Below, in pieces: positions 1-36,021 of a stretch of DNA of 64,000 nt (position 1 is its first letter; every line of letters begins with the position of its first letter). The stretch lies in the IMG/VR virus record IMGVR_UViG_3300036985_007154, one strand, 5' to 3'. Under the pieces are notes generated by a model. It was not told the origin of the DNA. It made no database searches and worked only from the letters and a program-made list of their open reading frames with translations. Both the position numbers and the translations under genes were made by a program. This DNA is from an uncultured virus (IMG/VR IMGVR_UViG_3300036985_007154). Its lineage: Duplodnaviria; Heunggongvirae; Uroviricota; Caudoviricetes.

Positions 1-1
1 A

Positions 2-3000
2 TATCAAAATATTAATCAGTATAATTTTAGACGTTGGGGGATTAAACCCGTCAACGAAATTACCGATATCTGTTTGGCTTCAGACGAGAAGGACTATGAC
101 CAGGAGGTAATTTTTTCACCATTATTAATTGGTGAAGTTGATGGAAATAGAATGCCATTCAGATTTGATTTCAATAGTACTGCAACAACGATATGCCAAT
201 CTGGAGTATGTACTTTTGATGATAATGTTATCGTTTCTGAAAATTATTGGAATCCTGATGACATTGACCCTAACTTTTGTCCCATAATTACAAATATTTG
301 TGACGTTGGTTTGACTGGTATTGATAATGGTTTGGTTAAAAACATGTCGGGTGAGACAATCCAAATAACCACAGGACTTTACACAAACAATTCAGACAAA
401 TATAGTAGATACAAGTACGATAGGAGAATGAAACTTCACCCTATCACAGGATTTACTACCACACAAAATCGACTTTGGAATGATGATTCTTACAGTTACG
501 ATTTGAACTATGCAACTGATGGCGGCACAGTTGGATATTTCGCAAGATTAGATGGTGGATTTTTCCAAGGGTTCTACAAAATACCTGGATATGATTATCA
601 AATTTTTCCACAGAGAGTATCATTAGGGTGGACATCTGAATTCATGTTAAGATACAGATGGACAGGAGATACTTCTGTCGGACTTAACGCAAGATATCCT
701 GATAATAAAGGTACGTTCTTTTATATGGGTTCAAGAGCGGAGAACAAATTCTATCACTACGCTGACGGAGAACCAAAACAAGATACTGGTTATACAAGAG
801 TAACTTCAGGTTTAACTTGTATGCATACTTGTGGTTGTGCTAGTTCGGCAAATACATCATCACAATGTTTACAAGTGTATCAACCATCGGGAGGTACGAT
901 AACTCACTGTACTTGTGGATGTCCTTGTGATTGTCAAACAAACGCCAAATACCCTGAAAAAGACCCGTTATATGATGGAGTATCTAACGGATTATCATTA
1001 AGACTTAGTGGTGACACAGGAAGTCCAAGATTATGTGTTAAGACATATAGAATCACTGGAGGTTGTGAATTTAGCGGAGCTTGTCTTACAGGTTTGACTT
1101 ATCACACTGGAACATCTGTAACTGAATGGTGTTCAACAAGAGGAATCTTTGACGACTGTAGTGGAACTACATATCAAAATGTAGAACATTGGGTTCAGAT
1201 TGATGCGGTGTTCCAAAGATACGAATGGTTAGATAAGTGTGACTTATATGATAAAGGTGGGTTAGGGTTACTTGTTAAAGACACTTATTTTGCAACAATA
1301 GAAGATAGAAGTGTCACTTTAATTGAACCTCCATTAACTCATGAACAGCCTTATGACCCACCAAGTACCGAAGTTGTTACGTTTAACGACATGTGGACTG
1401 AAGAACAAAAGTACAGATTAGGTACCCTTAAGTTTTATGTTAATGGAAAATTATTCTTGGTTACAGAAAACTTTGAGGAGATTATTCCAAGACTTCTTAA
1501 TGTTGAAAAAGAAAAACAAATTGGGGTTGGTTATAACATTTCTGTCGGGGGAGGTACTCAAGGTTTACATGACAACTTAACTTTTTCAGGTGGATGTCCT
1601 GCGGAATTAAGTGGAATAACTTACCAACAAGATCCAGAATGTTTAACTGATTATGACTTAGAACACACAGAGTATTCTGGCCTTACAACTCAAATAAGAT
1701 TAGAAGAAATTTTTGGTGGTAGTATGATTGGTGATGTTAGTGCATTTAGAATGTATACTGAACCATTAAACGCTTCTCAAATCAAACATAATTTTAGAAT
1801 ATTAAAAAACAGATATAATCTATTAGACCCTGACTGTTTAAATTGTAGAATTACAATACCAAATAATGATTTAGTTTATCTACCATTACCTTGTAATGAT
1901 TTAGGATATTTGATGGTACCATGTAATGATTTGTTTTCTTCTTTCTATCCATGTCCAACAACAACTCCTACGGTAACTCCAACACCTACAGTAACTCCAA
2001 CAAATACTGAGACAAATACTCCAACTCCAACTAATACACCAACTAATACCGAAACACCTACGGAAACGCCGACCAGTACTCCTACGGAAACTCCAACTAA
2101 TACTCCAACACCAACGGTAACACAAACACAGACACCAACTAATACCGAAACACCTACAGTTACTCCAACAGAAACTCCGACTCAAACTGCGACTCCAAGT
2201 ACAACTGCGACTGCTGGATTAACTCCGACTGCGACAGAAACTCAAACACCAACACCAACTAACACTCCAACTAATACGACTACTAACACGCCTACCAATA
2301 CAGAAACACCAACTAACACTCCAACAGAAACTGAAACTTCCACACCTACGGTCACTCCAACAAATACAGAAACACCAACATCTACGCCAACAGAAACTCC
2401 TACTAATACTCCAAGTGAAACACCAACAAACACTCCAACTAATACTGAAACAAGTACACCAACTCCTACAAACACTGAAACGCCTACACCAACAAGTAGT
2501 GAGACTCCTACTGAAACTCCGACTCAAACGGCAACACCAAGTACGACCCCAACAGCTGGCATGACTCCGACCGCAACAGAAACTCAAACTCCAACACCTA
2601 CTGAAACTCAAACATCTACGCCAACAGAAACGCCGACCAGTACTCCTACGGAAACTCCAACAAACACACCAAGTGAAACACCTACAAATACACCAACTAT
2701 AACAACAACTAACACTGCTAGCGTAACACCAACTAATACTGAGACTCCTACTCTTACGCCAACCAATACTCTAACTCCGACTAATACAAACACAAATACT
2801 CCGTCTCCTACACCAACTGAAGCTCCAATTGTTACCACAGGGTTGATAATGGATTGGGATATACAAAATTCAAGTTCCTATAGCGGTACAGGTACAACTA
2901 TAACCGACTTGAAAGGAAATATTAATGGAACTATGACGGGAACAATTGCTTATACGAGTGCATCTCCAAATTATTTAACCATAGATGGTGGTGTTTCTGA

Positions 3001-3526
3001 ATATATCTACACCGCAAACATCAACCCATATTTATCACCAGTCAACACTGGCACCGCACAAACAATTTTACTTTGGATTTACCCTACCTCAAATGGAATA
3101 ATATATTCTGAGCAAGGTACTTTGACTCCTGGCACAGGTTGGCATGATACACAGATTCAAAGAGATTCAAGTGATAGATTTTTATTCGGTGTGTGGCAGT
3201 ATATCATAGATTCCGCGCCAATAACTTCAGGTGTATTTGCACTAAATAATTGGTATCATGTCGGTTGGACATACAATGGAACTCTTACTGCATATGTAAA
3301 TGGAAATAGTGTAGGAACGTCGACTTACGTCAGAAGTACTCCTTTCAATAACGGATTTTCTTCACCAATGTATTTCAATTTTGGATATCCAACTACCACA
3401 GATATGACTACAACAACATCGACATGTTCTTACAGATTAGGCGCTTGTCAAATTTACAATCTTGGACTTACGGGAGCCCAAGTATTACAAAACTTCAACG
3501 CAGATAAATCAAAATACGGATTATAA
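2..3526 (+). CDS. Large putative virion appendage protein (5'-truncated): Cys-rich LamG/ConA-like region, ~290-aa Thr/Pro stalk, C-terminal LamG/ConA-like domain
   Basis: The frame is open from nt 2 ([13 protein letters not shown]...), so the TTG at 74 is unlikely to be the true start. LamG-like motifs: 'LKFYVNGK...[17 protein letters not shown]' and '[20 protein letters not shown]...[17 protein letters not shown]'. T/P repeat at about 1952-2827. Confidence 0.75.
1952..2827 (+). repeat. Coding low-complexity Thr/Pro(Glu/Asn) repeat ([12 protein letters not shown] units)
   Basis: Seen directly in the translation; includes an exact 35-nt duplication at 2063-2097 and 2627-2661. Confidence 0.95.
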
Positions 3527-3528
3527 AG

Positions 3529-4098
3529 ATGTATACAACAGACTGTAACTATTTTATTATAACCAACTACAATAATGTCGAAGAAGGATATTATAAATGG
3601 ACTGGTTGTACGGATATAATTAGTGTTTCATCAATTAACCCATTACAAGTACAATATGTTTGTGCTAAGGATTTAATTGTTGAAAGTTATGGCGCTCCTC
3701 TTACAATATCTTTAGTAGGTTTGTGTCCTTCAACAACACCAACTCCAACCATTACGTCAACACCAACTCAAAGTTCTGTAACGCCAACCCCAACCTCAAC
3801 TTCCCCAACTCCAACACCCACAACAACACCAACGGTTACACCAACAACAGTTTATATGTATAATCTAAGAACAGGTGGATGGTATCAAAATGTTTGTCAA
3901 TCTGTTAATATGATTGCAAATCCAACAAACGTAACAATCTACACTTCAAAACCTTTTGAAATTTTAGAAGTGGGCGATTACGTATACGGTAACCAATCTT
4001 TAACAATTCCACCAGTTAATGCCAATTTTACAATCTCAAACGGAGGTAGGTTTATTCAACTTAGCGGTAATCAAATTATTAATGTTGGGGTATGTTAA
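3529..4098 (+). CDS. Thr/Pro-repeat protein with two small Cys-containing modules
   Basis: 189-aa ORF starting 2 nt after the previous stop; central PTPTPT linker; Cys-bounded modules on both sides. Confidence 0.8.
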   Translation: MYTTDCNYFIITNYNNVEEGYYKWTGCTDIISVSSINPLQVQYVCAKDLIVESYGAPLTISLVGLCPSTTPTPTITSTPTQSSVTPTPTSTSPTPTPTTTPTVTPTTVYMYNLRTGGWYQNVCQSVNMIANPTNVTIYTSKPFEILEVGDYVYGNQSLTIPPVNANFTISNGGRFIQLSGNQIINVGVC

Positions 4099-4131
4099 TA
4101 GATAAAATAAAATTTTTGAGTATTTATTAAC

Positions 4132-4920
4132 ATGGCAGATTGTGGTGTATCAATTTCAAGTGTAAATTTAAGCGGATTAACAACCGAAGTTACGTTTCTT
4201 CCTCAAACAGGAGGGACTGCTGTTGACTTAGGTAATCAAATTTTTCCGTTTAGTTATGTTGCGAATTATTATTACGGAACATATAATTGTTACGTTCCAT
4301 TATATGCTTACACATATAGTATATCAATATTAGGTCCAACACCAACACCTACACCAACGGTGACATCAACTCCAACCAACACTCCGACTAATACTTCGAC
4401 ACCAACAGTAACACCTACTAATACTTCAACACAAACAAACACCCCGACTGTAACTCCAACCAACACTCTGACTAATACTTTAACACCAACCAATACTCCA
4501 ACCAATACACAAACTCCGACAACCACGGCAACTCAAACACCAACAACAACTCCAACTCGGACTCCAACACCAACAAATAATAGATTTGGGTTTGCGGTTT
4601 ATACTGGTTTGACTTCAGACGATGCATGTTCACAGGTTAATATACCGACAACAATCTATGGTGACGAATCATTGTTTGACGAAAACACTCAATTCTATAA
4701 TAATTCATTTGGTACTGTTACTATTAATATGGTAGGATTTTATAATTACGACCAAGTTGTAATCGAATTATTTGCCAATGGTACAATAAATGGTGTATTC
4801 TCATTATGTGTTACACCGACACCAACTCCAACAATTACGGCAACAAATACTCCAACACCTACAAATACTGAAACACCGACTATTACTCCAACTACTACTC
4901 CAACAGTGACACCCTCATAA
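4132..4920 (+). CDS. Thr/Pro-repeat protein with two-Cys module
   Basis: 262-aa ORF preceded by TATTTAT (4121-4127); two T/P tracts flank a 'DAC...TIY...FY...GFY...C' module. Confidence 0.8.
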
Positions 4921-4983
4921 ATTTTTAAAATAAAAAATAAATTCATATAATTTACACTATTTATAAATTAAATAAGAAAAACA

Positions 4984-6036
4984 ATGGCATGTAGTAAATA
5001 TATCCTCACGAACACTGGTTCGACAATAGTAAACTTCAGTTATAGAAGATGTGATGATTCTCTTTGGGATTATCAAGTTGAATTATCTCCTAATCAAACT
5101 AAAAATATTTGGGTAATTGATGGTACCTATACAGTGGCTTCGGCATTTAAGTCGTTGATAGTTTTAGTTAATGAAGGAGCATTTCCACCAATTTCGGCAA
5201 CGAGTACACCTACTCCATCTCCAACTGTAACACCAACTAATACTGCAACGCCAACAAATACTGCAACTAATACACCAACACCAAGTGTCACCACAACTCA
5301 AACTGGTACTCCAACATCAACCCCTACACAAACTAACACCGGTACTCCAACTCCTACACCAACTAACACTGGTACTCCAACACAAACACTGACTCCTACT
5401 AATACTCAAACTCCAACTAATACTACAACACAAACTCCAACTCCAACACAAACTCCAACATCACCACTTCAATCGTTTAGTGTTTACTCAGCGATAACTT
5501 CTAACCAAGCTTGTGTTAGTGGAATTGCGGTAACAATATACGCATTCAACGCATTATTTGACCAAAACACACAATTCTATACAACATCTACAGGTGGTGT
5601 GGCATCTAACATGGCAGGTTTCTATAGTGACGGTACTTCTGTTACTGAATTAAATAGTGGTGGTTTACAAGTTGGTTCGTTTACATTATGTTCGGGATTA
5701 GTAACCCCAACACCAACGGCAAGTAGTACAAGTACACCAACACCGACACCAACATTAACTCAAACACCAACATCAACTTTCGCTTGGTATACATATAGTT
5801 TAGGTACAGGTGCAACATCAAACGATGCATGTACAGCGTTTAGTGCTTCCCCTCAAACAATTTATGGTTCTATCGCAGGTGGAGTAGGACCAAACGTAGG
5901 TGAGTTCTTATACGAAGCAACAGGAAGACCTCTTACAGATGTAGTACCTAATGGATTCTATTCTAACGGAACCGCTTGGTACCAAGTTACGGGTGGTGCT
6001 GGACAAATTACCTCATCAGACCCTAACGGATGTTAA
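4984..6036 (+). CDS. Thr/Pro-repeat protein with three small modules
   Basis: 350-aa ORF preceded by TATTTATA (4958-4965); two T/P tracts; two copies of the two-Cys module. Confidence 0.8.
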
Positions 6037-6062
6037 TTAAATAATTAAAAATAATATATTTC

Positions 6063-6094
6063 AAAAAACCCTTCACCTTCGTGGAGGGTTTTTT
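6063..6094 (+). terminator. Intrinsic terminator-like hairpin
   Basis: AAAAAACCCTTCAC-CTTC-GTGGAGGGTTTTTT; stem with one G-U pair, then a T-run, just after the T/P genes. Confidence 0.75.
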
Positions 6095-6119
6095 ATTTTA
6101 TAGTAAAAATATAAATCAA

Positions 6120-7382
6120 ATGAAAATTTTTATTCAGATAGCCTCTTACAGAGACCCACAGTTGGTTCCAACCCTTAAAGATATGATTGCAAATGCAAAA
6201 AAACCAAAGAATTTGGTTTTCGGTATTGCAAGACAATTTAGTGAATCTGACGGATTCGATAATTTAGACGAATACAAAAAAGACAAACGATTTAAAATAT
6301 TAGACATCCCATATCAAGAATCCAAAGGTGTTTGTTGGGCAAGAAATCTAACACAACAACTCTATGATGGTGAAGAATACACCCTACAAATTGACTCTCA
6401 CATGAGATTCATTAAGGATTGGGATGATGTGTTAATTAAGATGATTAAAGGGTTACAAAAGGATGGACATAAGAAACCTTTGTTAACAGGTTATGTCCCT
6501 TCATTTGACCCTGAAAATGAACCTGCAGGTAGATCTCAAGACGCTTGGAGAATGGCATTCGACAGATTCATTCCTGAAGGGGCAGTATTCTTTTTACCCG
6601 AAACAATTCCAGGCTGGAAAGAAATGACAAAACCAGTTACCTCAAGATTCTATTCCGCCCACTTCTGCTTTACAATCGGACAATTCTCAACTGAAGTACA
6701 ACACAATCCTGAATATTATTTCCACGGAGAAGAAATTTCTATCGCTGCTCGTGCTTACACTTGGGGTTATGATTTATTTCATCCACACATCCCTGTTGTT
6801 TATCACGAATATACTCGTAAAGGTAGAACCAAACAATGGGATGACGACAAAACTTGGGGAGATAAAAATAAACACTCTCACTTAACAAATAGAAAATTAT
6901 TTGGTATGGATGGTGAAACTCAAGAGGGACATGATGGCCAATATGGATTTGGTACGGTAAGAACACTTAGAGAATATGAAAGATACTCTGGTTTGTTGTT
7001 TGAAAAGAGAGCAGTTGACCAACATTGTTTAGATAAAAACTATGCTCCTAGTCCTGTAATTGAAGATGAGGAGGAATGGAAAAATAGTTTCTCAACAATT
7101 TACAAACATTGTATTGATATTGGATATTCACAAGTTACTGAAACCGATTATGATTTTTGGGTTGTCGCATTTCACGGGCCAAATGATGAAACTATTTACC
7201 GAAAAGATGCCGATAAGAATGAAATTGCAGGATTTATGAGAGACCCTGATAAGTATTGTAAAGTTTGGAGAGAATTCCCTACAACAATATTACCAACACA
7301 TTGGGTTGTTTGGCCTCACTCAGAATCAAAAGGATGGTGTGATAGGATAACAGGGCAATTAAACCACAATGTTATTAGTTAA
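6120..7382 (+). CDS. GT60-like (Gnt1/Gnt2-type) polypeptide GlcNAc transferase with an extra C-terminal domain
   Basis: Motifs 'IFIQIASYRD', 'GVCWARN', 'LQIDSHMRF..DWD', 'FHGEE', 'GYDLFHP...VYHEY' are typical of GT60. ATG 6120 is preferred because GTG 6081 lies inside the terminator hairpin. Confidence 0.8.
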   Translation: MKIFIQIASYRDPQLVPTLKDMIANAKKPKNLVFGIARQFSESDGFDNLDEYKKDKRFKILDIPYQESKGVCWARNLTQQLYDGEEYTLQIDSHMRFIKDWDDVLIKMIKGLQKDGHKKPLLTGYVPSFDPENEPAGRSQDAWRMAFDRFIPEGAVFFLPETIPGWKEMTKPVTSRFYSAHFCFTIGQFSTEVQHNPEYYFHGEEISIAARAYTWGYDLFHPHIPVVYHEYTRKGRTKQWDDDKTWGDKNKHSHLTNRKLFGMDGETQEGHDGQYGFGTVRTLREYERYSGLLFEKRAVDQHCLDKNYAPSPVIEDEEEWKNSFSTIYKHCIDIGYSQVTETDYDFWVVAFHGPNDETIYRKDADKNEIAGFMRDPDKYCKVWREFPTTILPTHWVVWPHSESKGWCDRITGQLNHNVIS

Positions 7383-8125
7383 TGAAATTTAATGAAATCC
7401 CTAAGTTTGTTGTTAATTTAGAAACAAGACCAGATAATCTTGAACTTATAAAAAAAGAAATGGATTATATCGGTTGGGAGTTTGAAAAGTTCAACGCGGT
7501 AAATAGAAACAGTTATATGGGTTGTACCCTATCTCATTTGGAAATTATTAAAATTGCCAAAGAAAGGGGATACGACCGAGTTATGGTTATTGAAGATGAT
7601 TGCGTCTTTATGCCATATGCTAAATCATTATTGGAAGATATTGAAAAACAGATTGACGGTATTGAATTTGGTGTTTTTAATATAACTCCAACATTGAATA
7701 GAAAAGTTAATGTTAGTGATAAATATGATTTATTATTGGATATTACAAATCTTCCTCCAAAAGAAGAACATCTTGCAGAAACATTTGCAACAAATATTTT
7801 AATATACGATAAATCTGTATATGATGAGATGTTTAATATTTCTTTAACAGCATTTACTGAATCAGGAAATTATTATTTTCCGATTGATGGGTATTTGGTT
7901 AATTTTATTTATCCTAACTTTCAAAGTTATTGTCCCGTATTACCAATTGCTCCACAAAGAAATTCGTATTCTGATGTTTCTCATGGTATGTATAATAACT
8001 TCTATACTCAAACATACAATTGGAATTTATATTCTCCTAAGAAACTACCCAATGAGTTTAAGAGTGAAGAGGGAAATGAGAAAATAAAACAAGAAAAAAA
8101 ACACGTTCAATATTATGTCAGTTAA
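7382..8125 (+). CDS. GT25-like glycosyltransferase
   Basis: 'VVNLETRPD', 'GCTLSHL', 'VMVIEDDC', 'PIDGYL' match the GT25 (Lic2A/LgtB-type) pattern; TAATG coupling to the upstream gene. Confidence 0.75.
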   Translation: MKFNEIPKFVVNLETRPDNLELIKKEMDYIGWEFEKFNAVNRNSYMGCTLSHLEIIKIAKERGYDRVMVIEDDCVFMPYAKSLLEDIEKQIDGIEFGVFNITPTLNRKVNVSDKYDLLLDITNLPPKEEHLAETFATNILIYDKSVYDEMFNISLTAFTESGNYYFPIDGYLVNFIYPNFQSYCPVLPIAPQRNSYSDVSHGMYNNFYTQTYNWNLYSPKKLPNEFKSEEGNEKIKQEKKHVQYYVS

Positions 8126-8996
8126 ATTTATAACGTCAATTTATAGTGATTTACACGGAACAGAATTAGGTGGTAGAACAGGTAGAAATGGTCATTACAG
8201 ATATAGTTTATTGTCATTATTAAAAATGACAGACTCTGATTTCATATGTTATACCTCAGATAGAGAAATAGAATCACTTAAAGAATTTTTCTACACCGAT
8301 AATAAAATTTCCGAAGAAAAGTTGAAGTTTCAAATTTTTAATATTAGTGATACTAAATTTAAAGATTTAATTAGTAAGAGAAAAAATGTAGAAAATACAA
8401 AAAATGGAGACAGATGTGTTGAAATTCAATACTCTAAGTTTCATTGGTGGTGGAATGAGGATAAGTCTTATGATTATTATTATTGGATTGATGCCGGATT
8501 TTCTCATTGCGGGTTAATTCCACCAAAATATTTAATTGGAGAACATCCTCAAATTAGATATTACGAAAGTAGTTTATTCAATAATGATTTTTTAAAAAAT
8601 GTGATTGAAGACACTGGTGATAAATTTTTGATTTTAGGTAAAGAGAATGATAGGAATTATTGGTCAGGAACTGTAAATCCTAAATGGTATACTGAATATG
8701 ATAGAAGTATTCACATCATTGGTGGTATGTTCGGCGGTCACAGAGACAAGTGGGATACTATAGTCAATATGTTTGAAAATTATATTGAGAATATATTAAC
8801 TGAAGATGATGGATTGCCTCACGAAGAACAGGTAATGAGTTTGATGTACGTAAATCATAAAGATTTATTTGTAAGAAAACATTTTGACATATGGTGGTAT
8901 AAAGGTAATTCACCCTCAGGTGTATCAGATGAAATGTTTGAACAAAATAAAAGTTTTTATAAAATATTAGAAGAATTTAATAGAATTTATGAGTAA
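8115..8996 (+). CDS. HtrL/YibB (WlaTC)-like putative glycosyltransferase
   Basis: 'YYWIDAG', 'GGMFGG', 'EEQVMS' motifs; paralogous to the N-terminal half of the next gene. Confidence 0.6.
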   Translation: MSVKFITSIYSDLHGTELGGRTGRNGHYRYSLLSLLKMTDSDFICYTSDREIESLKEFFYTDNKISEEKLKFQIFNISDTKFKDLISKRKNVENTKNGDRCVEIQYSKFHWWWNEDKSYDYYYWIDAGFSHCGLIPPKYLIGEHPQIRYYESSLFNNDFLKNVIEDTGDKFLILGKENDRNYWSGTVNPKWYTEYDRSIHIIGGMFGGHRDKWDTIVNMFENYIENILTEDDGLPHEEQVMSLMYVNHKDLFVRKHFDIWWYKGNSPSGVSDEMFEQNKSFYKILEEFNRIYE

Positions 8997-10662
8997 TATA
9001 ACATTAGTAACAGGTATTTGGGACATTGGTAGAGGAGAATTAACAGAAGGTTGGAGCAGGTCTTATCAACATTATTTAGATAAGTTTGAACAACTATTGA
9101 AGGTTGAAGAAAATCTAATAGTGTTCGGAGATGAAGAATTAAAATCTTTTGTTTTTGAAAGAAGAAATTCTGAAAATACTCAGTTTATAGTAAGGCCATT
9201 AAGTTGGTTTACCAACTCTGATTATTTCGACAAAATTCAAAAAATTAGAAATGATGACACTTGGAGAAGTAGAGCTGGATGGTTATCTGAATCAACTCAG
9301 GCTAGACTAGAAAACTATAATCCGTTAGTTATGTCAAAAGTGTTTTTATTACACGACGCCAAAATTATGGACCAATTCAATTCCGAATATATGTTTTGGA
9401 TTGATGGTGGATTGACAAATACCGTACATCCTGGTTATTTTACACATGATAAAGTTTTAGATAAATTATCAAAATATATTTCTAAATTCTCATTCATCTG
9501 TTTCCCATATGACGCGGAAAATGAAATACACGGATTTGAATATAATAAATTAAACACAATTGCTGGAGACAAAGTTACTAAAGTTGCTCGTGGAGGTTTC
9601 TTCGGAGGTCCTAAACATACTATTAGTGATATTAATGGAATTTATTATAATTTATTAATGTCAACATTAAATGAAGGTTATATGGGTACTGAAGAATCAT
9701 TATTCAGTATTATGTGTTATAAACACGCTGACCTTATTAATTATTTTGAAATTGAAGGTAATGGTTTAATTGGTAAGTTTTTTGAAGATTTAAAAAATGA
9801 CGAACTTAAACCAAAATCTGAAGGAAAAGTCTCTGTTGAAAATACTTTGGATATCAACAAAGTAGGTCTATACGTAATCACATTTAATAGTCCGAGTCAA
9901 TTTGAAACATTAATCCAATCAATGTTAGAATATGATAAAGATTTTATTCTCAAACCTAAGAAATTTTTATTAGATAATTCAACCGATTTATCAACAACTC
10001 CAAGATATAAAGAACTTTGTGATGAATACGGATTTGAACATATTAAGAAAGATAATATTGGAATTGTTGGTGGTAGAGTATTTGTTGCCGAACATTTTGA
10101 CGAAACAGGATTGGACTTCCAATTCTGGTTTGAAGATGACATGAGTTTTTACCTTAAAAAAGGTGAAGTATGTAGAAATGGTTTTAATAGATTTGTTCCA
10201 AACTTATATTCAAAATCATTACAAATTATGAAAAATGAAAATTTTGATTTTTTAAAATTAAGTTTTACTGAATTTTATGGCTCAAATGACATACAATTTT
10301 CATGGTATAATGTACCTCAACATGTTAGAACAGAATTATTTCCTGAAAAATCATCGTTACCTGTCCAAGGATTAGACCCAAATGCACCAAGAACTAAATT
10401 TAATAACATTAAAATACATCAAGGATTACCATATATTGACGGTGAAATCTATCTGTCTAACTGGCCAATTGTGTTAAGTAAATCAGGTAATTATAAATGT
10501 TATATTGAGACGCAATGGGCACATCCATTCGAACAAACTCTTATGTCGCATTGTTATCAAGAAACGGTTAAAGGCAATATTAAACCAGGTATTTTGTTAT
10601 TAACACCAACGGAACACGATAGATTCGAACATTACGATAGGGGGCTTCGTAAAGAGTCATAA
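8989..10662 (+). CDS. Two-domain glycosyltransferase: N-terminal HtrL/WlaTC-like, C-terminal GT-A (GT2-like)
   Basis: 'ITLVTGIWDIGR', 'FWIDGG', 'GGFFGG', 'GTEESL' in the first half; 'LYVITFN...LLDNS...FWFEDDM' in the second. Confidence 0.65.
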   Translation: MSNITLVTGIWDIGRGELTEGWSRSYQHYLDKFEQLLKVEENLIVFGDEELKSFVFERRNSENTQFIVRPLSWFTNSDYFDKIQKIRNDDTWRSRAGWLSESTQARLENYNPLVMSKVFLLHDAKIMDQFNSEYMFWIDGGLTNTVHPGYFTHDKVLDKLSKYISKFSFICFPYDAENEIHGFEYNKLNTIAGDKVTKVARGGFFGGPKHTISDINGIYYNLLMSTLNEGYMGTEESLFSIMCYKHADLINYFEIEGNGLIGKFFEDLKNDELKPKSEGKVSVENTLDINKVGLYVITFNSPSQFETLIQSMLEYDKDFILKPKKFLLDNSTDLSTTPRYKELCDEYGFEHIKKDNIGIVGGRVFVAEHFDETGLDFQFWFEDDMSFYLKKGEVCRNGFNRFVPNLYSKSLQIMKNENFDFLKLSFTEFYGSNDIQFSWYNVPQHVRTELFPEKSSLPVQGLDPNAPRTKFNNIKIHQGLPYIDGEIYLSNWPIVLSKSGNYKCYIETQWAHPFEQTLMSHCYQETVKGNIKPGILLLTPTEHDRFEHYDRGLRKES

Positions 10663-10678
10663 CAGTATATTTATTGTT

Positions 10679-11056
10679 ATGGAATTTTATATTAAAAAGA
10701 ACGCAACTCTCCCTGTGTTAAAAATGCAGGTGGTAAAAGACGGTAGAGCAGGTTACCAACAACTCATGGAAGATCTTGAGGTCTCGACTATATTTTTTAC
10801 CATGATTGATGTGGAAACAGGTATTCCAAAGATTGTTTCTGCTCCTTGTAGTATAGTTTCTTTAATATTACCTGAAGGTGCACCAACTGAGTACTACATT
10901 TATTTCAAGTTCAGTTCAAGAGACACAAATACTCCTGGTCGATATCAAGGACAATTTTTAATTAGAAATGACGAGGGTAATTTAATACTACCGATTCGAG
11001 AAGAACTTTATATCAATATCCAAGATAGTTTCATTTCCGAAACTGCTTGTTGTTAA
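10679..11056 (+). CDS. Small beta-rich putative structural protein (BppU N-terminal-like)
   Basis: 'FYIKKNATLP.L', 'Y.F...DT..PGRYQGQF.I', 'ILP' pattern; TATTTAT at 10668-10674. Confidence 0.5.
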   Translation: MEFYIKKNATLPVLKMQVVKDGRAGYQQLMEDLEVSTIFFTMIDVETGIPKIVSAPCSIVSLILPEGAPTEYYIYFKFSSRDTNTPGRYQGQFLIRNDEGNLILPIREELYINIQDSFISETACC

Positions 11057-11088
11057 TTTGACAAGACACAAATTTCTTTTATATTTAT
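11057..11088 (+). promoter_or_regulatory. Bacteroidota-like promoter upstream of the DNA polymerase
   Basis: TTTG(11057-11060)-N19-TATATTTA(11080-11087), one mismatch from TTTG-N19-21-TAnnTTTG. Confidence 0.5.
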
Positions 11089-11151
11089 ACATGATGAGTA
11101 AGGTAAACTTCACGTTAGTGTGAAAGCCAATAAACCACTCGTATATATACA

Positions 11152-13941
11152 ATGCTTACAGAACAAGAAATTGAATCGTTCCTGCACGGAAACGATCCCG
11201 AAGAATTTATAGTCGCCATCGAGTTCGACTACGCTTCCAACTCCATCTACAAAATCAAAGAAATACCTGGCAAAGGTAAAGAAATTCGTAAGGATACCTT
11301 TACCCCATTTGCATGGGTTGGTGATTTACGCGATATTAACTTTTATGGTGGTTCAAAGGCTGCTCAGAAGGAAGCTATGACCAAACATGGTATCACAATT
11401 GAAAAACTTGACACTCACGGTAATAAAAGATTAGAGAAGGGTATGACTTTTATGGTCAAATCTCTGAAAGGTTATCGTGAACTTGTTCAATTTTTTAGAG
11501 AAGGTGGATGTGACCCTTGGGGCGAAAGAACAAAAGATAAAATAATCATTTTGTCTCCTGTTGAACAATATCTTGTGTCAAAAGAAAAAAGATTGTTCAA
11601 AGGATTTGAGGATTATAACCAAGTAACCCGATTGGTATTTGACTTAGAAACGACCGCATTGGAACCCAAAGACGGTCGTATATTCATGATTGGAATTAAA
11701 ACAAACAAAGGATACCATAAAGTTATCGAATGTATTGATGAATCTCAAGAACGAGGTGCCATCATAGAGTTTTTCAGTATTATTAATGAGTTGAAACCAA
11801 GTATTATTGGTGGATACAATTCTGCAAACTTCGACTGGCATTGGATATTCGAACGATGTAAAATCTTGGGTATTGACCCTAAAAAGATTTGTCGTTCCCT
11901 ACACCCCGACCATTCATTCACAAGAAAAGAAGGTATGTTGAAACTTGCCAACGAAGTTGAGTTATATACTCAAACTTCCATTTGGGGATATAATGTTATT
12001 GATATTATTCATGCGGTTCGTAGAGCACAAGCAATCAATTCAAGTATCAAATCTGCGGGATTGAAATACATTACCCAATATATTAATGCGGAAGCTGAAG
12101 ACCGAGTGTATATTGACCACTTGGACATCGCACCATTCTATACTAAGAAAGAAGAGTTCTGGTTGAATACACAGAATGGAAACTACCGTAAGGTCGGACA
12201 AGACCCCAAAATAGATAACATCTGTGAAAGTAGGGAGGATGTCTATCTTAAAGTAACAGGAGACAACTTGGTAGAACGATATCTTGATGATGACTTGGAC
12301 GAAACCTTGAAAGTTGACCAAGAATTCAATCAAGGTTCATTCTTACTTGCGGCGATGATTCCAACTACCTATGAGAGAGTATCCACTATGGGTACGGCAA
12401 CTTTGTGGAAGATGTTGATGATGGCATGGTCATATAAACACAACATTGCAATTCCTGCCAAGGAATCCAAGACTGACTTCGTTGGAGGTCTCTCAAGACT
12501 ACTTAAGGTGGGATATAGTAAGGACGTACTCAAGCTTGACTTCTCGTCTCTATACCCCTCCATTCAGTTGGTACACGACGTATTTCCTGACTGTGACGTA
12601 ACGGGTGCGATGAAGGGTATGTTAAAGTGGTTCCGAGATACTCGTATCAGATATAAAAACTTGGCGGAACAATTCTATGAAACAGATAGAAAAAAATCTG
12701 AGTCTTACGGTAACAAACAATTACCTATAAAAATTTTCATAAATAGTATGTTTGGGGCGTTATCCGCCCCTCAGGTTTATGCTTGGGGTGACATGTATAT
12801 GGGTGAACAAATTACTTGTACTGGAAGACAATATCTTCGTCAGATGATTAAGTTTTTTATGACGAAAGGATATGTTCCGTTGGTAATGGATACTGACGGT
12901 GTGAACTTTTCTACACCTGAAGATGCTAAGAATAGAGTTTATGTTGGACGTGGTTTGAACTGGAAAGTTAAATTGGGTAAAGAATATTTCGGGCCTGAGG
13001 CGGATGTTGCGGAGTATAACGATATATTCATGAGAGGTGAAATGGCTTTGGATACCGATGGTGTTTGGCCATCATGTATCAACTTGGCTCGTAAGAACTA
13101 TGCGGTTATGGATGCGAAGGGTAAAATCAAACTTACAGGTAACAGTATCAAGTCAAAAAAACTTCCAATATATATTGAAGAGTTTTTGGATAAAGGTATT
13201 AAGTTGTTATTACAAGGGAATGGTAAAGGGTTTGTTGAATACTACTATGAGTATATTCAAATTATCTATGACAAGAAAATTCCTCTCTCTAAAATTGCTC
13301 AACGTGCTAGAGTGAAGTTGAGTATTGATGAATACAACAAAAGATTAACAACCAAAACTAAGTCAGGTAATAGTATGTCTCGAATGGCTCATATGGAACT
13401 TGCAATACAAAATGGTTTGAATGTAAACTTGGGAGATGTTATTATGTATGTTAACAATGGAACTAAAGCTTCACAAGGAGATGTACAGAAAATGACGGTG
13501 AAACAAATCAAAGATACAAATGCTTTGAATGTATTAAATGACCCTAAATCAAAACTTATTACTGATGGGGTAATTGTTAATTGTTATATGTTGGATAAAG
13601 ATATTTTGAGTAATGACCCCACCCTAACTGGTGATTATAACGTACCGAGAGCGATGGTAACATTTAATAAAAGAATCGAACCTTTAATGGTTGTGTTCCA
13701 AGATGAAGTAAGAAACGGATTGATTGTTAGTGACCCTGAAAAACGAGGTATTTTTACAACGTCTCAATGTGAATTGATTAATGGACACCCATTGTCTGAC
13801 GGTGACCAAGACAGGTTACAAGAAGACGTGTTGGATATTACTGAGTTGGAACTCAAGTATTGGGAAAAGAGAGGATTAAGTCCTAATTATATGTATGACT
13901 TAGCCGAAGAAGGGTGGGAGGAAAAACTTATGACTGCTTAA
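11152..13941 (+). CDS. Family B DNA polymerase with 3'-5' exonuclease
   Basis: Exo motifs 'FDLETT' and 'GYNSANFDW'; polymerase motifs 'LDFSSLYPSI', 'KIFINSMFG', 'MDTDG'. Confidence 0.97.
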   Translation: MLTEQEIESFLHGNDPEEFIVAIEFDYASNSIYKIKEIPGKGKEIRKDTFTPFAWVGDLRDINFYGGSKAAQKEAMTKHGITIEKLDTHGNKRLEKGMTFMVKSLKGYRELVQFFREGGCDPWGERTKDKIIILSPVEQYLVSKEKRLFKGFEDYNQVTRLVFDLETTALEPKDGRIFMIGIKTNKGYHKVIECIDESQERGAIIEFFSIINELKPSIIGGYNSANFDWHWIFERCKILGIDPKKICRSLHPDHSFTRKEGMLKLANEVELYTQTSIWGYNVIDIIHAVRRAQAINSSIKSAGLKYITQYINAEAEDRVYIDHLDIAPFYTKKEEFWLNTQNGNYRKVGQDPKIDNICESREDVYLKVTGDNLVERYLDDDLDETLKVDQEFNQGSFLLAAMIPTTYERVSTMGTATLWKMLMMAWSYKHNIAIPAKESKTDFVGGLSRLLKVGYSKDVLKLDFSSLYPSIQLVHDVFPDCDVTGAMKGMLKWFRDTRIRYKNLAEQFYETDRKKSESYGNKQLPIKIFINSMFGALSAPQVYAWGDMYMGEQITCTGRQYLRQMIKFFMTKGYVPLVMDTDGVNFSTPEDAKNRVYVGRGLNWKVKLGKEYFGPEADVAEYNDIFMRGEMALDTDGVWPSCINLARKNYAVMDAKGKIKLTGNSIKSKKLPIYIEEFLDKGIKLLLQGNGKGFVEYYYEYIQIIYDKKIPLSKIAQRARVKLSIDEYNKRLTTKTKSGNSMSRMAHMELAIQNGLNVNLGDVIMYVNNGTKASQGDVQKMTVKQIKDTNALNVLNDPKSKLITDGVIVNCYMLDKDILSNDPTLTGDYNVPRAMVTFNKRIEPLMVVFQDEVRNGLIVSDPEKRGIFTTSQCELINGHPLSDGDQDRLQEDVLDITELELKYWEKRGLSPNYMYDLAEEGWEEKLMTA

Positions 13942-15410: not shown

Positions 15411-16949
15411 TTATTCGATGTCTAACTTCAAAGCATCGATTGGGAACACATAGTTTCCATCTACAATTTTTGGTTTTTTATTGAAAATCAAAACATTTTT
15501 ACCTTTTTGAAAAATCAATAAGTCAGTTGAATAGTTTTTAACATGTGCTGTTCCGAGAAGTGTTATCGTTCCATTTTCTTCATCAACTATTTTTTCTCTG
15601 AAGGGCTTTACTTGAGCGGTCTCAGTTTGGTCATCACTTGTAAGTCTAAGGTCAATACCACGTAAAGCATCATCTTTACTACCTAATTCCCCAACCACTT
15701 CTACTTTCACTTTTTTTCCAAAAAACCTCCTCAATATTGCAGCGACAATTTCCTCTCTTTTATTACCCGAAGAATTTCTGTCTTGTAAAGTTTTTATAAT
15801 GTTTATAAAACTTGAACTTTCTAAGTTGAATATTCTAAATTTATAATAATCTAATGCTGCAATAAATCTTTCAACTTCACTTAATTGTTCTTCGGGAGTT
15901 TTTCCTACGAACGATATTGGTTTTTTACCTTTGATTGTTTTGATTACTTGATTTACATCATTAAGTAAAATACAAAATGTGGTGTAATTTGTATTCAGTT
16001 TATTGATTACTGATCTTCCTTCAGACTCTAACCCAAAAATTCCTGATAATTCACCTTCGGGTGGATTGGTAACATACAAATCACTAAATACTGTCATCAA
16101 TATTCTATTGATGGCAGCACTATATTTGTATTTAATGGACTGGTTAGTGTTGAACAAGGTTCTGTAAAACTCGTTATCCGTTGTACCACACGACTCTGAC
16201 TTTGCTTCCGATAAAAGTTTTTTGAATTGTATGGATTCCAAAAGTTTTGTCTCGGTTTTCATTTCATAAAGTTTAGAAACAAAGTCCCAATTCACAACTT
16301 TCCAAAAGTTTGAGATGTATTCATCTCTTTTGTTTCGATATTTTAGGTAGTAAGCGTGTTCCCATATATCTAATCCCAATATTGGAAATCCTCCACCATC
16401 GATAATATTCATAAGAGGATTGTCTTGGTTTGCGGTGGACATAATTTTTAGGGTGTTTCTTCCTGTTAGAACTAACCACACCCAACCGGAACCAAATCTT
16501 TCTTTTGCGACTTCTTCAAATTTTTTCTTGAATGAAACAAAACTTCCGAATTCTTTTACAATTTTTTTGTATAAATCACCTTTGAGTTTTTTTGGTTCGG
16601 GTGACAACATATTCCAAAACAATGCGTGGTTAAACGCTCCACCCGCATTGTTTCTGATTGTTTTGTCGAATCGACTTATGGTTTTGATTATTTGTTCTAA
16701 CTCTAAATCTCCATACTTTTTCTTGGAGAGAGCATCGTTTAACTTATCGACATATCCTTTATAATGTTTATTATAATGGAAGTCCATTGTTTCGGGGTCG
16801 ATAAATTGTTTGAGGGCCGAGTACGAATAGGGTAATTTCTCTATCCCAATTTTTTTCATTTCTGTAATTAACAACTCTTTTTCTCTAGTTACTTTTTGTT
16901 CTACAATTTGTAATTCAAGTTGTTGAATCTTCTCTTGTATTTTACTCAT
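15411..16949 (-). CDS. Fe/Mn superoxide dismutase (Mn-type signature) fused to a C-terminal PD-(D/E)xK-like domain
   Basis: 'LPYSYSAL', 'FHYNKH', 'NAGGAFNH', 'FGSGWVWL', 'NQDNP', 'DIWEHAYY' (aa 31-230, all four metal ligands present); C-terminal 'GNKREE...GIDL...AQVK'. Confidence 0.9.
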   Translation of the reverse strand: MSKIQEKIQQLELQIVEQKVTREKELLITEMKKIGIEKLPYSYSALKQFIDPETMDFHYNKHYKGYVDKLNDALSKKKYGDLELEQIIKTISRFDKTIRNNAGGAFNHALFWNMLSPEPKKLKGDLYKKIVKEFGSFVSFKKKFEEVAKERFGSGWVWLVLTGRNTLKIMSTANQDNPLMNIIDGGGFPILGLDIWEHAYYLKYRNKRDEYISNFWKVVNWDFVSKLYEMKTETKLLESIQFKKLLSEAKSESCGTTDNEFYRTLFNTNQSIKYKYSAAINRILMTVFSDLYVTNPPEGELSGIFGLESEGRSVINKLNTNYTTFCILLNDVNQVIKTIKGKKPISFVGKTPEEQLSEVERFIAALDYYKFRIFNLESSSFINIIKTLQDRNSSGNKREEIVAAILRRFFGKKVKVEVVGELGSKDDALRGIDLRLTSDDQTETAQVKPFREKIVDEENGTITLLGTAHVKNYSTDLLIFQKGKNVLIFNKKPKIVDGNYVFPIDALKLDIE

Positions 16950-28707: not shown

Positions 28708-30531
28708 ATGGCTGACGACAAAAAAAATTCAATTGAACAACTCAAAGAAGATGTTTTAAATCAACTTAAAGTTGATGCTAATACATTTATAGAATCCTCT
28801 GATGCCTTATCACAATATGCGAATGACATAAATAAACTTTTTACTCAGGGCAGACAGAGGATGCTCGAACTTCAAACCGCTCTGGCGGATACTACACCAA
28901 GTATCGCAAGAATGGGTGGGAGTATTGGAGATGTTGCAAATATAATTGGTAAAGTTGCAACTGAATCACGACGAAATGTCGTGGCTTCTACAGAAGAAGT
29001 TGAAAAATTATTTGCTGCTCAAAAAGTTTTAGGACTTGGAGCAGATACTCTAACTAAAGCATTTTTAGATGTTGGAGCAGGTATAGAAACTATTGGTGAT
29101 ACATTAGAAGAATCTGTTAACTACATTCAAAGTATTGGAGGTAACGCTGCGACAGTAATGAAAGATGTTACCAACAACATGGACCAAATGAACCGATATC
29201 AATTTGAGGGTGGGGTTATGGGACTGACAAAAATGGCGGCCCAAGCTTCTATGTTGAGATTTGATATGAACCAAACGTTCCAACTTGCAGATAAAGTATT
29301 ATCTCCTGAAGGAGCAATTGAAACTGCTGCAGCATTTCAACGGTTAGGAGTTGCTGCGGGAACTTTAGTTGACCCGTTTGCTTTGATGAATGCATCAATT
29401 AATGATCCAGGGTCCCTACAAGATAGTTTAGTAGATGTTGCAAAACAATTTACCTATTTCGATGAAAAAACAAAAACATTCAAAATTAATCCACAAGGGG
29501 TTCTCACATTAAAAGAACTACAGACTCAAACAGGTGTAAGTGCTGCGGAAATGAGTAAGTTAGGATTGGCGGCTGCTGAGGCGGATAAAAGAATTTCTGC
29601 GGTAGGATCAGCAGGTCTTAACATTAAAGAAGACGACAAACAGTATCTTGCAAACATAGCAAGGATGGGTGAGGGTGGAGAGTATGAAGTTAAAATACGA
29701 AATGAAGAGGGAATAGAATCTACAAGAAAGTTAACGGAAATTACTCAAACTGAATTTGAAAATTTAATTAAAGAACAGAGAGATCGTCCCAAAGACATGG
29801 AAGAAATCGCCAGATCTCAAATGAGTACTTCTCAAGTAATTATGGCGGATGTTTCTGCAATACGTGCTAAAATTGTTGGAGGAGTTGTTAGTGCTGGACA
29901 AGTATTACAAACTAAAGAAGATATACGAGGTACCGTAACAAACGTGAGTGGAGAGTTTTCAAAAATGGGAACTACTAAAAGTGTTAGGGATGTTACAGAA
30001 ACTGGAATTACTGATCTTAAAACTTTGTATTATGATTTGACTGAGGGAAATAAAGACAATGTAACCGCAATATCAGATTACTTAAATAAATCAGGTGATT
30101 TACTCGGTCAAGTTGAAAAAGATTTTAAAAAATCTTTGGAAGATACCGCAAGACAAATGAAAGATAAAGCTAAGGAAGGTTCCCTTGAAGAAACATTACT
30201 TAATAAAATCGAGGGAAGAATTGATGAAAAAGAAACTGCACTTAAACAAATCTCGGGTAATCAGACCACATCAAGTTTATTGGAAGGAAGACAAACACAA
30301 GTTCAAGAGATTACAAGAAATACTACAAGTACCAATGGTACAATGAAATCTACAATAGATATAGGTGGCACACTTAAAGTGGAAGTTACTTCTCCAACAG
30401 GAACTGATTCTCAAACGATTGACAAAGCTTTTTACAATTTATTTAATTCAGATGAATTCAGAAATCTAGTAAGAAACATACAAAATGAAGGTAAAGGTCT
30501 TAATCCAGTATCAACCACTTTCGGTAATTAA
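28708..30531 (+). CDS. Putative tape measure protein
   Basis: 607-aa Ala/Gln/Lys-rich helical sequence in the canonical position after the tube and chaperone genes. Confidence 0.65.
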   Translation: MADDKKNSIEQLKEDVLNQLKVDANTFIESSDALSQYANDINKLFTQGRQRMLELQTALADTTPSIARMGGSIGDVANIIGKVATESRRNVVASTEEVEKLFAAQKVLGLGADTLTKAFLDVGAGIETIGDTLEESVNYIQSIGGNAATVMKDVTNNMDQMNRYQFEGGVMGLTKMAAQASMLRFDMNQTFQLADKVLSPEGAIETAAAFQRLGVAAGTLVDPFALMNASINDPGSLQDSLVDVAKQFTYFDEKTKTFKINPQGVLTLKELQTQTGVSAAEMSKLGLAAAEADKRISAVGSAGLNIKEDDKQYLANIARMGEGGEYEVKIRNEEGIESTRKLTEITQTEFENLIKEQRDRPKDMEEIARSQMSTSQVIMADVSAIRAKIVGGVVSAGQVLQTKEDIRGTVTNVSGEFSKMGTTKSVRDVTETGITDLKTLYYDLTEGNKDNVTAISDYLNKSGDLLGQVEKDFKKSLEDTARQMKDKAKEGSLEETLLNKIEGRIDEKETALKQISGNQTTSSLLEGRQTQVQEITRNTTSTNGTMKSTIDIGGTLKVEVTSPTGTDSQTIDKAFYNLFNSDEFRNLVRNIQNEGKGLNPVSTTFGN

Positions 30532-35698: not shown

Positions 35699-36021
35699 TG
35701 GCATATCAATATTATAACCGATATAGTGATTTTCTAATTAATGGTGACCAAACTGTGGTACCATTTGTTTACCTGCCTTCAAAACCTACTGATAAAGCAT
35801 ATATATATAAAGTTGCTAAAAGTAGATTAGATAAAGTATCACAAGAATTTTATAATTCGCCCGTATTCGGATGGTTGATACTTCAGGCTAATCCGCAATT
35901 TGGAGGTCTTGAAAATAATATTTATGATGGTGCGGTATTGATTATACCATTTCCATTACTACCATCATTACAGGACTATAAGGCGGCATTAGAAAATCAT
36001 TTTTATTATTATGGCAGGTAA
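35698..36021 (+). CDS. Baseplate wedge protein (gp53/LysM-like)
   Basis: 'RLDKVSQEFY.SP..GWLILQANP...LIIP'. Confidence 0.7.
   Translation: MAYQYYNRYSDFLINGDQTVVPFVYLPSKPTDKAYIYKVAKSRLDKVSQEFYNSPVFGWLILQANPQFGGLENNIYDGAVLIIPFPLLPSLQDYKAALENHFYYYGR

Follow-up and report, generated by a model that had tools for sequence, protein, structure and literature searches.

A candidate mucin-type protein O-glycosylation system, with a GT60-family transferase and Thr/Pro-tract proteins, in an uncultured freshwater jumbo phage

The left end of a 64,000-nucleotide stretch of the uncultured virus IMGVR_UViG_3300036985_007154 (IMG/VR; the whole stretch is referred to here as the window) carries, all on the + strand, four genes for proteins with long Thr/Pro (T/P) tracts, labeled P1 to P4, and four putative glycosyltransferase (GT) genes headed by a member of family GT60, which together make up a candidate mucin-type O-glycosylation system. 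The source is an uncultured freshwater jumbo phage, myophage-like, of whose genome the window is a part; near-identical contigs in IMG/VR reach 317-326 kb. The window also encodes tail sheath, tube, baseplate, a family-B DNA polymerase (PolB), helicases and ribonucleotide reductase. The features of the locus are the following.

2..3526 (+): P1, 1174 amino acids in the window; a conserved N-terminal region of 640 amino acids, a T/P tract of 303 (amino acids 644-946, nucleotides 1931-2839) and a C-terminal Laminin_G_3 / ConA-like lectin domain (amino acids 943-1174).
3529..4098 (+): P2, 189 amino acids; a small Cys-containing module, a 50-amino-acid T/P tract (amino acids 66-115, nucleotides 3724-3873) and a C-terminal module; no Pfam family.
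4132..4920 (+): P3, 262 amino acids; small modules separated by two T/P tracts (amino acids 63-155 and 223-262, nucleotides 4318-4596 and 4798-4917); no Pfam family.
4984..6036 (+): P4, 350 amino acids; small modules separated by two T/P tracts (amino acids 66-166 and 237-271, nucleotides 5179-5481 and 5692-5796); no Pfam family.
6063..6094 (+): terminator-like hairpin between P4 and the GT60 gene; 14-pair stem, 4-nucleotide loop and T-run.
6120..7382 (+): putative soluble glycosyltransferase of family GT60, 420 amino acids; GT-A catalytic domain and C-terminal beta domain (amino acids about 323-415).
7382..8125 (+): GT25-like glycosyltransferase, 247 amino acids; PF01755; in the variable slot of the cassette.
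8115..8996 (+): HtrL-like protein a (HtrLa), 293 amino acids; in the variable slot; HtrL-like on weaker evidence.
8989..10662 (+): HtrL-like protein b (HtrLb), 557 amino acids; N-terminal HtrL_YibB domain and a second GT-A-like domain with FEDDM.

Taken together, the tracts of P1-P4 sum to 622 residues, 45% Thr and 20% Pro, in which TPT occurs 106 times, TPTN 32 times and PTVT 11 times, so that both the four consecutive genes with long TPT tracts and the repeated PTVT described in a first-pass annotation of this DNA are borne out. As DNA, the tracts are degenerate tandem repeats of 12-84 nucleotides, and no further T/P tract was found among the other open reading frames (ORFs) of at least 100 amino acids in the 64 kb. 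P1 is open at the 5' end of the window, where just 2 residues are missing by comparison with its homologue in the complete relative L010 (start MAYQNINQ). Its C-terminal domain matches Laminin_G_3 in Pfam (E-value 7.3e-9) and its C-terminal part matches phrog_8510, 'virion structural protein', in PHROG (E 1.7e-9), while the N-terminal part has protein-atlas features like those of phage LamG/pentaxin clusters (score 0.93), which is a lead only. The Cys-containing modules of P2, P3 and P4 have no family assignment; hence, the lectin-like tips that had been proposed for the stalks hold for P1 and are not confirmed for P2-P4. The translations, read directly, show no hydrophobic N-terminal segment in either the enzymes or the T/P proteins, in agreement with the earlier remark that signal peptides are not evident.

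The product of 6120-7382 matches PF11397 with E 3.2e-67 (227.9 bits, against a cut-off of 21) and phrog_24687 with E 8.7e-165. The sole Pfam family in the protein is PF11397, and a ricin-type lectin domain is lacking at the C-terminus; the conserved beta domain of about 100 amino acids that lies there, seen in the alignment and the model, extends past the Pfam model and has no family assignment. When 26 diverse homologues, 36-50% identical to the window protein, were aligned, D92-x-H94 (D92-S-H94 in the window), R96, W101, D102 and H229 were invariant in all of them; a GT-A fold with a DxH metal-binding motif is also a feature of the related GT27 enzymes. The AlphaFold (AF2) model has a predicted local distance difference test (pLDDT) value of 94.5 and a predicted template-modelling score of 0.90. 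Searched with this model, Foldseek returned GT27 polypeptide N-acetylgalactosaminyltransferases (GalNAc-transferases) for all of the first 25 matches listed (ranks 1-37), the best with E 2.4e-10, at sequence identities of just 9-18%. A Foldseek-independent search over 48,161 chains gave mouse GalNAc-T1 (Z 20.9, root-mean-square deviation 3.6, 277 aligned) and TgGalNAc-T3 (Z 19.9), with the next GT-A enzyme below the GT27 matches at Z 17.3. The GT60 identity and the kinship to GT27 polypeptide transferases claimed at the outset are therefore upheld, by the PF11397 score and the nearest folds, respectively. At the sequence level, phmmer found no match among PDB sequences at E<=1, and NCBIfam holds no family for the GT60 protein, the GT25-like gene or HtrLa. 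As far as the accessible part of the source goes, the characterised GT60 members are all polypeptide-directed, are devoid of the ricin-type lectin domain of GT27, act in protists on Thr/Pro-rich mucin-like repeats, and include a single soluble cytosolic enzyme, the Skp1 hydroxyproline N-acetylglucosaminyltransferase (GlcNAc-transferase) (PMC8724618). Family and modelled fold thus point to 6120-7382 as the putative initiating polypeptide N-acetylhexosaminyltransferase (HexNAc-transferase) of the system.

Concerning the other transferases, the GT25-like protein matches PF01755 with E 9.3e-11 and 42.4 bits (cut-off 24), 57 residues being aligned (46-102, on profile positions 68-122 of 199); among relatives it is 52-93% identical, and in some loci other genes stand in its place. 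HtrLa gives no Pfam match even at E<=5. It has a GG(M/F)FGG block in common with HtrLb (BLASTP E 0.001), 23 of its 30 protein-atlas feature matches are clusters carrying PF09612, and it is 30% identical to ORF332 of phage XacN1 (see below); it is best called HtrL-like, on weaker evidence, and not a demonstrated PF09612 member. HtrLb does match HtrL_YibB, PF09612 (E 3.9e-24, residues 3-255 on profile positions 2-254 of 267), and reaches 83 bits against the NCBIfam YibB equivalog, whose cut-off is 265, which makes it a family member and not a YibB orthologue. Its second domain (amino acids about 290-420) holds an invariant E382-D383-D384 in the alignment. The HtrLb model has a mean pLDDT of 71.8, and its best Foldseek matches are tandem two-GT-A-domain enzymes (LH3, mimivirus R699, K4 chondroitin polymerase, LARGE1 and COLGALT1), at E 1e-11 to 1e-7 and whole-chain TM-scores of merely 0.19-0.32. 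Because of these two-domain matches the earlier count of five putative GT domains is reasonable, the fifth being the second GT-A-like domain of HtrLb. HtrLb is 42.5% identical over its full length to XacN1 ORF330, and in other loci it is fused to TylF- or FkbM-type methyltransferases. The four family names originally given thus fare unequally under profile search: GT60 and HtrLb are confirmed, the GT25-like gene is aligned over 57 residues only, and HtrLa is without a Pfam match.

The first-pass annotation also had the T/P genes directly followed by one coupled run of GT60, GT25-like and HtrL-like genes. The coupling holds among the four transferase genes (6120-10662), which overlap one another; the hairpin at 6063-6094, on the other hand, sets the T/P genes apart, and because of its 14-pair, terminator-like structure the two gene sets are read as separate transcription units instead of one. 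A matching hairpin motif lies upstream of GT60 in 52 of 76 relatives. The hairpin bears as well on the start of the GT60 gene, since the listed alternative GTG at 6081 falls within it and the GT60 proteins of relatives begin at the position matching ATG 6120; the latter is the true start, as first annotated.

A scan of IMG/VR confirmed 239 relatives among 265 candidate stretches, from which 80 loci with a GT60 81-96% identical to that of the window were kept. At least 1.5 kb of upstream DNA was available in 61 of them, the other 19 being too short, and all 61 have a T/P ORF upstream of GT60 on the same strand, ending within 400 nucleotides of it in 60. The linkage in related genomes on which the first-pass annotation had staked its proposal is thus found in 61/61 close relatives and, as described below, in a distant phage group and in bacteria. 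Since the 80 loci are closely related, this is conservation and not independent recurrence; the variation on both the T/P side and the cassette side is more telling than bare conservation. On the T/P side, the number of genes per locus ranges from 2 to 5 and that of tract residues from 198 to 893. On the cassette side, the distance from GT60 to HtrLb is 1.5 kb in 61 of 78 loci and 2.5-8.5 kb in the remaining 17.

Some of these loci deserve individual description. The slot between GT60 and HtrLb holds methyltransferase, RXYLT1_C-like, GT2-like, GT10 fucosyltransferase-like and GT7C galactosyltransferase-like genes in L015 (10885-16756) and a sugar nucleotidyltransferase in L139 (11711-17872); a GT7 gene immediately follows GT60 in L135 (11221-12675), and an FkbM methyltransferase is fused to HtrLb in L140 (8670-9510). 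The chemistry of the cassettes fits a GlcNAc primer, because characterised GT7 and GT10 enzymes use GlcNAc-based acceptors. The complete relative G001 carries, at 150094-151338 and 295391-303250, four more T/P proteins with repeated small Cys-containing modules and T/P linkers, so the presumed substrates are dispersed along the genome. L010 (5915-8299, +) encodes, between the homologues of P1 and P2, a protein of 794 amino acids with long collagen-like GTS/GSS triplet repeats. In view of this insertion the locus counts as a hypervariable region of fibre genes; the Thr/Ser-rich triplets might be glycosylated as well.

Beyond these relatives, window positions 1-12000 gave no megablast match in a phage collection. 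At the protein level, however, a GT60 homologue was present in 4 of its 50,697 records, i.e. XacN1, Xoo-sp13, CM1 and RAS14 (44-47% identity), and full-length HtrLb in the same four only. The cassette order in this group is GT60, a NodU-type carbamoyltransferase, an HtrLa-like gene and HtrLb, with an extra ORF of 246 amino acids between the last two in XacN1 and Xoo-sp13. XacN1 ORF333 (L001, 13439-15736) is a NodU-type O-carbamoyltransferase by its matches to NF041651 (E 4.4e-52) and to Carbam_trans_N plus Carbam_trans_C; the presence of such a gene between GT60 and the HtrL genes in XacN1, Xoo-sp13 and RAS14 suggests a carbamoylated glycan in these three phages. Backbone genes of XacN1 are only 24-32% identical to those of the window, and its polymerase has no match to the window's at E 1e-20, whereas GT60 is 46% and HtrLb 42.5% identical. 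Long (V/I)TPT tracts are found in at least 15 ORFs of XacN1, which lie scattered along the genome. A DNA pattern coding for TPTxTPT occurs 36 times in G001, 74 in G002, 51 in XacN1, 51 in Xoo-sp13 and 22 in RAS14, and its reversed control not once in any of the five; hence, tract abundance is far beyond chance. The same pattern is absent from four jumbo phages without GT60: RsoM2USA, which by its polymerase stands nearest to the XacN1 group, XbC2, Vibrio phage 2.275.O and 121Q. XacN1 virions display at least two Schiff-stained glycoprotein bands according to the legend of Supplementary Fig. S4 of the XacN1 paper, whose authors suggested, in the part of the text accessible, that the phage's own transferases make the virion glycoproteins (PMC5852040).

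The linkage extends to bacteria. When prokaryotes were scanned by alignment, each species being represented by one genome, GT60 relatives were confirmed in at least 584 of at least 623 candidate stretches, of which 78 loci were kept. With a strict definition of tract (a 30-residue window with at least 70% T/S plus P and few R, C or W), a (T/S)+P tract ORF is present in 34 of the 78. The nearest tract lies at 0-1 kb from GT60 in 18 loci, at 1-2, 2-3, 3-4 and 4-5 kb in 2, 4, 9 and 1, respectively, and at 5-10 kb in none, though 105-118 kb of flank were available per 1-kb bin. The loci belong to Bacteroidota, Gemmatimonadota, Planctomycetota, Verrucomicrobiota, Acidobacteriota, Actinomycetota and alpha-, beta- and gamma-proteobacteria (at least seven phyla). 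An HtrLb homologue stands beside GT60 in 29 of the 78 loci, and the two genes form a conserved core pair. Four contigs binned as Saprospiraceae (L433, L434, L438 and L447) carry a GT60 67-69% and an HtrLb about 63% identical to those of the window and no PolB; a T/S-P gene adjoins the pair in L433 and L434, and none was found in L438 and L447. Either genes have been exchanged with a lineage that may be a host, or the contigs are phage DNA that ended up in the bins.

In environmental sequence the GT60 family comprises 4558 clusters at 50% identity and 7341 at 90%. A T/P tract within the GT60 protein itself was found in 2 of 150 representatives, so fusion lends no support to the linkage, and a quick GT60 tree is star-like, with 6 of 54 branches well supported, and no donor or direction of transfer was drawn from it. 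Metagenomic giant proteins of up to 2461 amino acids hold up to four separate GT60-like stretches (P0122-P0124, P0130, P0140 and others).

The association was also looked at across more divergent viral records and in the reverse direction. Among 12 viral records whose GT60 is 27-72% identical to that of the window, the TPTxTPT pattern is present in 5. For the reverse test, viral records were searched for a stretch coding for (TPTx)3TPT, which yielded at least 137 stretches; 50 loci were sampled from the longer contigs, one locus per contig and with contigs below about 23 kb dropped, and 47 records were tested. PF11397 is present in 16 of the 47 (and in 4 of the 12 among them with a completeness of at least 90%), with GT60 identities to the window of 86, 82, 73, 72, 71, 70, 70, 69, 69, 68, 59, 36, 33, 32, 28 and 27%. 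The control, an arbitrary 14-base pattern, gave 116 stretches, and the 50 longest of the 80 records listed were tested: none has PF11397 (0/50 against 16/47, Fisher p 1.9e-6). When only records of at least 40 kb are considered, the figures are 13 of 36 T/P-bearing records and 0 of 20 controls (p 0.002).

From these data we consider it probable that the phage encodes a cytoplasmic, mucin-type protein O-glycosylation system acting on its own fibre-like T/P proteins. In this system the soluble GT60 enzyme (6120-7382) would, during infection, transfer HexNAc, most likely GlcNAc from uridine diphosphate (UDP)-GlcNAc, onto Thr (and Ser) residues of the T/P tracts, the substrates being P1-P4 and further T/P proteins elsewhere in the genome. 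The two-domain HtrL-type transferase (8989-10662) would extend the primer sugar, and the genes of the variable slot, here the GT25-like and HtrL-like ones, would build or decorate the remaining glycan; in relatives this task may fall to GT7 galactosyltransferase-like, GT10 fucosyltransferase-like, methyltransferase, nucleotidyltransferase or NodU-type carbamoyltransferase genes. The outcome would be stalks that are extended, clad in glycans and resistant to proteases and that bear small modules, either Cys-containing or lectin-like; as fibres or decoration, they would probably be displayed on the particle. The proposal draws wholly on family membership, fold and comparative genomics, from which we infer the sugar, the acceptor residue, the order of steps and the location in the virion.

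Several observations weigh against this interpretation. Concerning the association itself, 7 of the 12 divergent GT60-bearing records are without the TPTxTPT pattern; these are mostly fragments, at most 13% complete, but G012 (66% complete) has none either, and in the complete G006 the pattern occurs twice and its reversed control once. In the reverse direction, PF11397 is absent from 31 of the 47 T/P-bearing records; among the 12 with a completeness of at least 90% it is missing from 8, and because of these complete records the link is not obligatory, and T/P tracts do not require a GT60 enzyme. The 16 positives are not independent events, as 11 of them have a GT60 59-86% identical to that of the window, and the controls have a lower median length (31 kb, as opposed to 60 kb). 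Concerning the locus, the terminator-like hairpin parts the T/P genes from the transferase operon, and the two further T/P sites of G001 mean that adjacency is not exclusive. T/P tracts are, besides, common unmodified linkers of bacterial proteins. The placement of P1-P4 in the virion comes solely from the PHROG structural match through the LamG domain of P1, and the accessible part of the XacN1 paper does not name the proteins behind the Schiff-stained bands (PMC5852040). Lastly, the last 130 residues of the HtrLb model have pLDDT below 50, and the names of the GT25 and HtrL families derive from lipopolysaccharide (LPS) loci.

The last point leads to an explanation that we regard as unlikely, although there is something to be said for it: the operon would make or alter host LPS, capsule, another glycoconjugate or a small molecule, with T/P tracts acting as unglycosylated flexible linkers whose adjacency is accidental in a hypervariable region. 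PF01755 is labeled 'LPS biosynthesis protein' and HtrL_YibB was likewise named from LPS core loci, htrL is mentioned in papers on lipooligosaccharide outer-core (OC) loci of Acinetobacter, and the hairpin, the 8 of 12 complete T/P-bearing records without GT60 and the GT60-bearing records without T/P tracts are all as it would have them. It does not account, however, for the GT60 fold being nearest to peptide-directed GT27 enzymes, nor for the polypeptide-directed activity of all characterised members covered in the accessible part of PMC8724618. Accidental adjacency is also at odds with bacterial T/S-P tracts within 5 kb of GT60 in 34 of 78 loci from many phyla and none at 5-10 kb, and with the recurrence of the linkage in a phage group of merely 24-32% backbone identity. 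Moreover, the lipid-carrier priming transferases PF02397 and PF00953 were found in none of five genomes (their controls were positive in 9 and 12 of 14), and the four transferases have no evident membrane segment.

Another possibility, which we hold to be doubtful, concerns the acceptor: a phage 2-oxoglutarate/Fe(II) prolyl hydroxylase would convert tract Pro, and GT60 would then add GlcNAc to hydroxyproline, as Gnt1 does on Skp1 in Dictyostelium and Toxoplasma. The sole soluble cytosolic GT60 characterised, as far as the accessible part of the source tells, is that very enzyme (PMC8724618); the tracts are 20% Pro, and the complete relatives G001 and G002 each have three PF13640 (2OG-FeII_Oxy_3) proteins (G001 312344-321891; G002 28772-29065, 152970-153233 and 162023-162214). 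Those of G001, at 312-322 kb, are nevertheless remote from its GT60 at about 95 kb, and XacN1, Xoo-sp13 and RAS14 combine GT60, HtrLb and abundant T/P tracts with no PF13640 at all. The Pfam scan revealed no hydroxylase in the window among the ORFs that it covered, Thr outnumbers every other residue of the tracts (45%), and the nearest solved folds are Ser/Thr-directed GT27 enzymes.

It is very improbable, in our judgment, that GT60 modifies host proteins for takeover or anti-defence instead of the phage's T/P proteins: the family is classed in PHROGs as 'moron, auxiliary metabolic gene and host takeover', and a soluble enzyme whose operon stands apart from the T/P genes would agree with this, but nothing indicates a host target, bacterial GT60 homologues adjoin T/S-P genes of their own, and the phages with GT60 are those rich in T/P tracts. 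Glycosylation of phage DNA bases against restriction is scarcely credible, since the neighbouring PolB (11152-13941; PolB is also near the operon in XacN1) and a non-significant match of the C-terminal half of HtrLb to TAGT (TET-associated glycosyltransferase; E 0.16) are outweighed by a fold and family that are polypeptide-directed, by bacterial homologues linked to T/S-P genes and not to DNA-modification genes, by the score of 311 bits (cut-off 108) that marks the ThyA-family gene of G001 as a true thymidylate synthase and, weakly, as the control of that family is also positive nowhere, by the absence of Tet_JBP from five genomes.

Elsewhere in the window, 15411-16949 (-) encodes a 512-amino-acid fusion protein in which a complete Fe/Mn superoxide dismutase (Sod_Fe_N E 1.3e-22 and Sod_Fe_C E 1.3e-39, over amino acids 37-226) is followed by about 285 residues without assignment. 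In the tail/baseplate region, three + strand ORFs of 1708, 2579 and 1627 amino acids (30572-35698, 36011-43750 and 55522-60405) have no PHROG or Pfam match and no T/P tract.

The proposed system can be set against those already known. The protist GT60 polypeptide alpha-GlcNAc-transferases of Dictyostelium and Trypanosoma cruzi are alike in PF11397, in the DxH metal motif, in having no ricin-type lectin domain and in their Thr/Pro-rich mucin-like substrates, as described in the accessible part of PMC8724618. Those that prime mucins are Golgi membrane proteins working on secretory proteins, whereas the phage enzyme is soluble, is predicted to act in the bacterial cytoplasm and has the additional conserved C-terminal beta domain of about 100 amino acids. 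Gnt1, also GT60, is likewise soluble and cytoplasmic, and its product is extended by further soluble transferases, according to the same partial source (PMC8724618). The target of Gnt1 is one hydroxyproline in a single protein, formed by prior prolyl hydroxylation, whereas the likely phage substrates are hundreds of repeat Thr and the XacN1 group, which shares the cassette, is without the PF13640 hydroxylase. The GT27 GalNAc-transferases of animals and Toxoplasma have in common with the phage protein the GT-A fold and DxH, and glycosylate Ser/Thr/Pro-rich mucin domains in dense arrays; they differ in carrying the C-terminal ricin lectin domain, in using UDP-GalNAc and in their 9-18% identity to it.

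The serine-rich-repeat adhesins of Gram-positives undergo cytoplasmic O-GlcNAc priming of long Ser/Thr-rich repeats by the dedicated GtfA/GtfB, after which extension is left to transferases that vary between strains and are encoded next to the substrate gene; there the primer is a GT4 pair of GT-B fold, not a GT-A GT60, and the substrates are exported via the accessory Sec system. Phage self-glycosylation is, to our knowledge, limited to few cases. Among them are the mycobacteriophages of Freeman and colleagues (2023), whose transferases reportedly glycosylate the phages' own structural proteins in the host cytoplasm, but are said to belong to other families and to act on C-terminal extensions of capsid and tail-tube subunits, not on long T/P stalks. 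Mycobacteriophage virion proteins are cited as having 'extensive glycosylation' in the accessible part of PMC12582341. XacN1 has homologous GT60, HtrLa and HtrLb, many T/P-tract ORFs and Schiff-stained virion glycoproteins, but a NodU-type carbamoyltransferase instead of the GT25-like gene and a distantly related backbone; the accessible part of the XacN1 paper names neither the GT60 family nor the T/P tracts nor the modified proteins (PMC5852040). In the literature searched, a GT60-led glycosylation system is described neither for phages nor for bacteria, the XacN1 authors being the closest to doing so.

Mucin-type O-glycosylation begun by a polypeptide HexNAc-transferase is regarded as eukaryotic and Golgi-based. 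More tentatively, and going beyond the window, it is possible that GT60 and the two-domain HtrL-type transferase are the core of a widespread, undescribed cytoplasmic pathway by which prokaryotes and phages O-glycosylate Thr/Pro repeat proteins in mucin-type manner. Freshwater jumbo phages might then clothe their hypervariable fibres in diverse glycans, perhaps N-acetyllactosamine (LacNAc)/Lewis-like, by means of swappable galactosyl-, fucosyl-, methyl- and carbamoyl-transferase cassettes, and the pathway could mark the prokaryotic root of eukaryotic GT60/GT27. If the proposed system is real, it would provide soluble, easily expressed enzymes for the synthesis of mucin-like glycopeptides and would be relevant to the question of where the eukaryotic initiating enzymes came from. 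It would also explain how surface fibres are built and diversified in abundant freshwater jumbo phages, with consequences for the protease resistance and the recognition of their particles.

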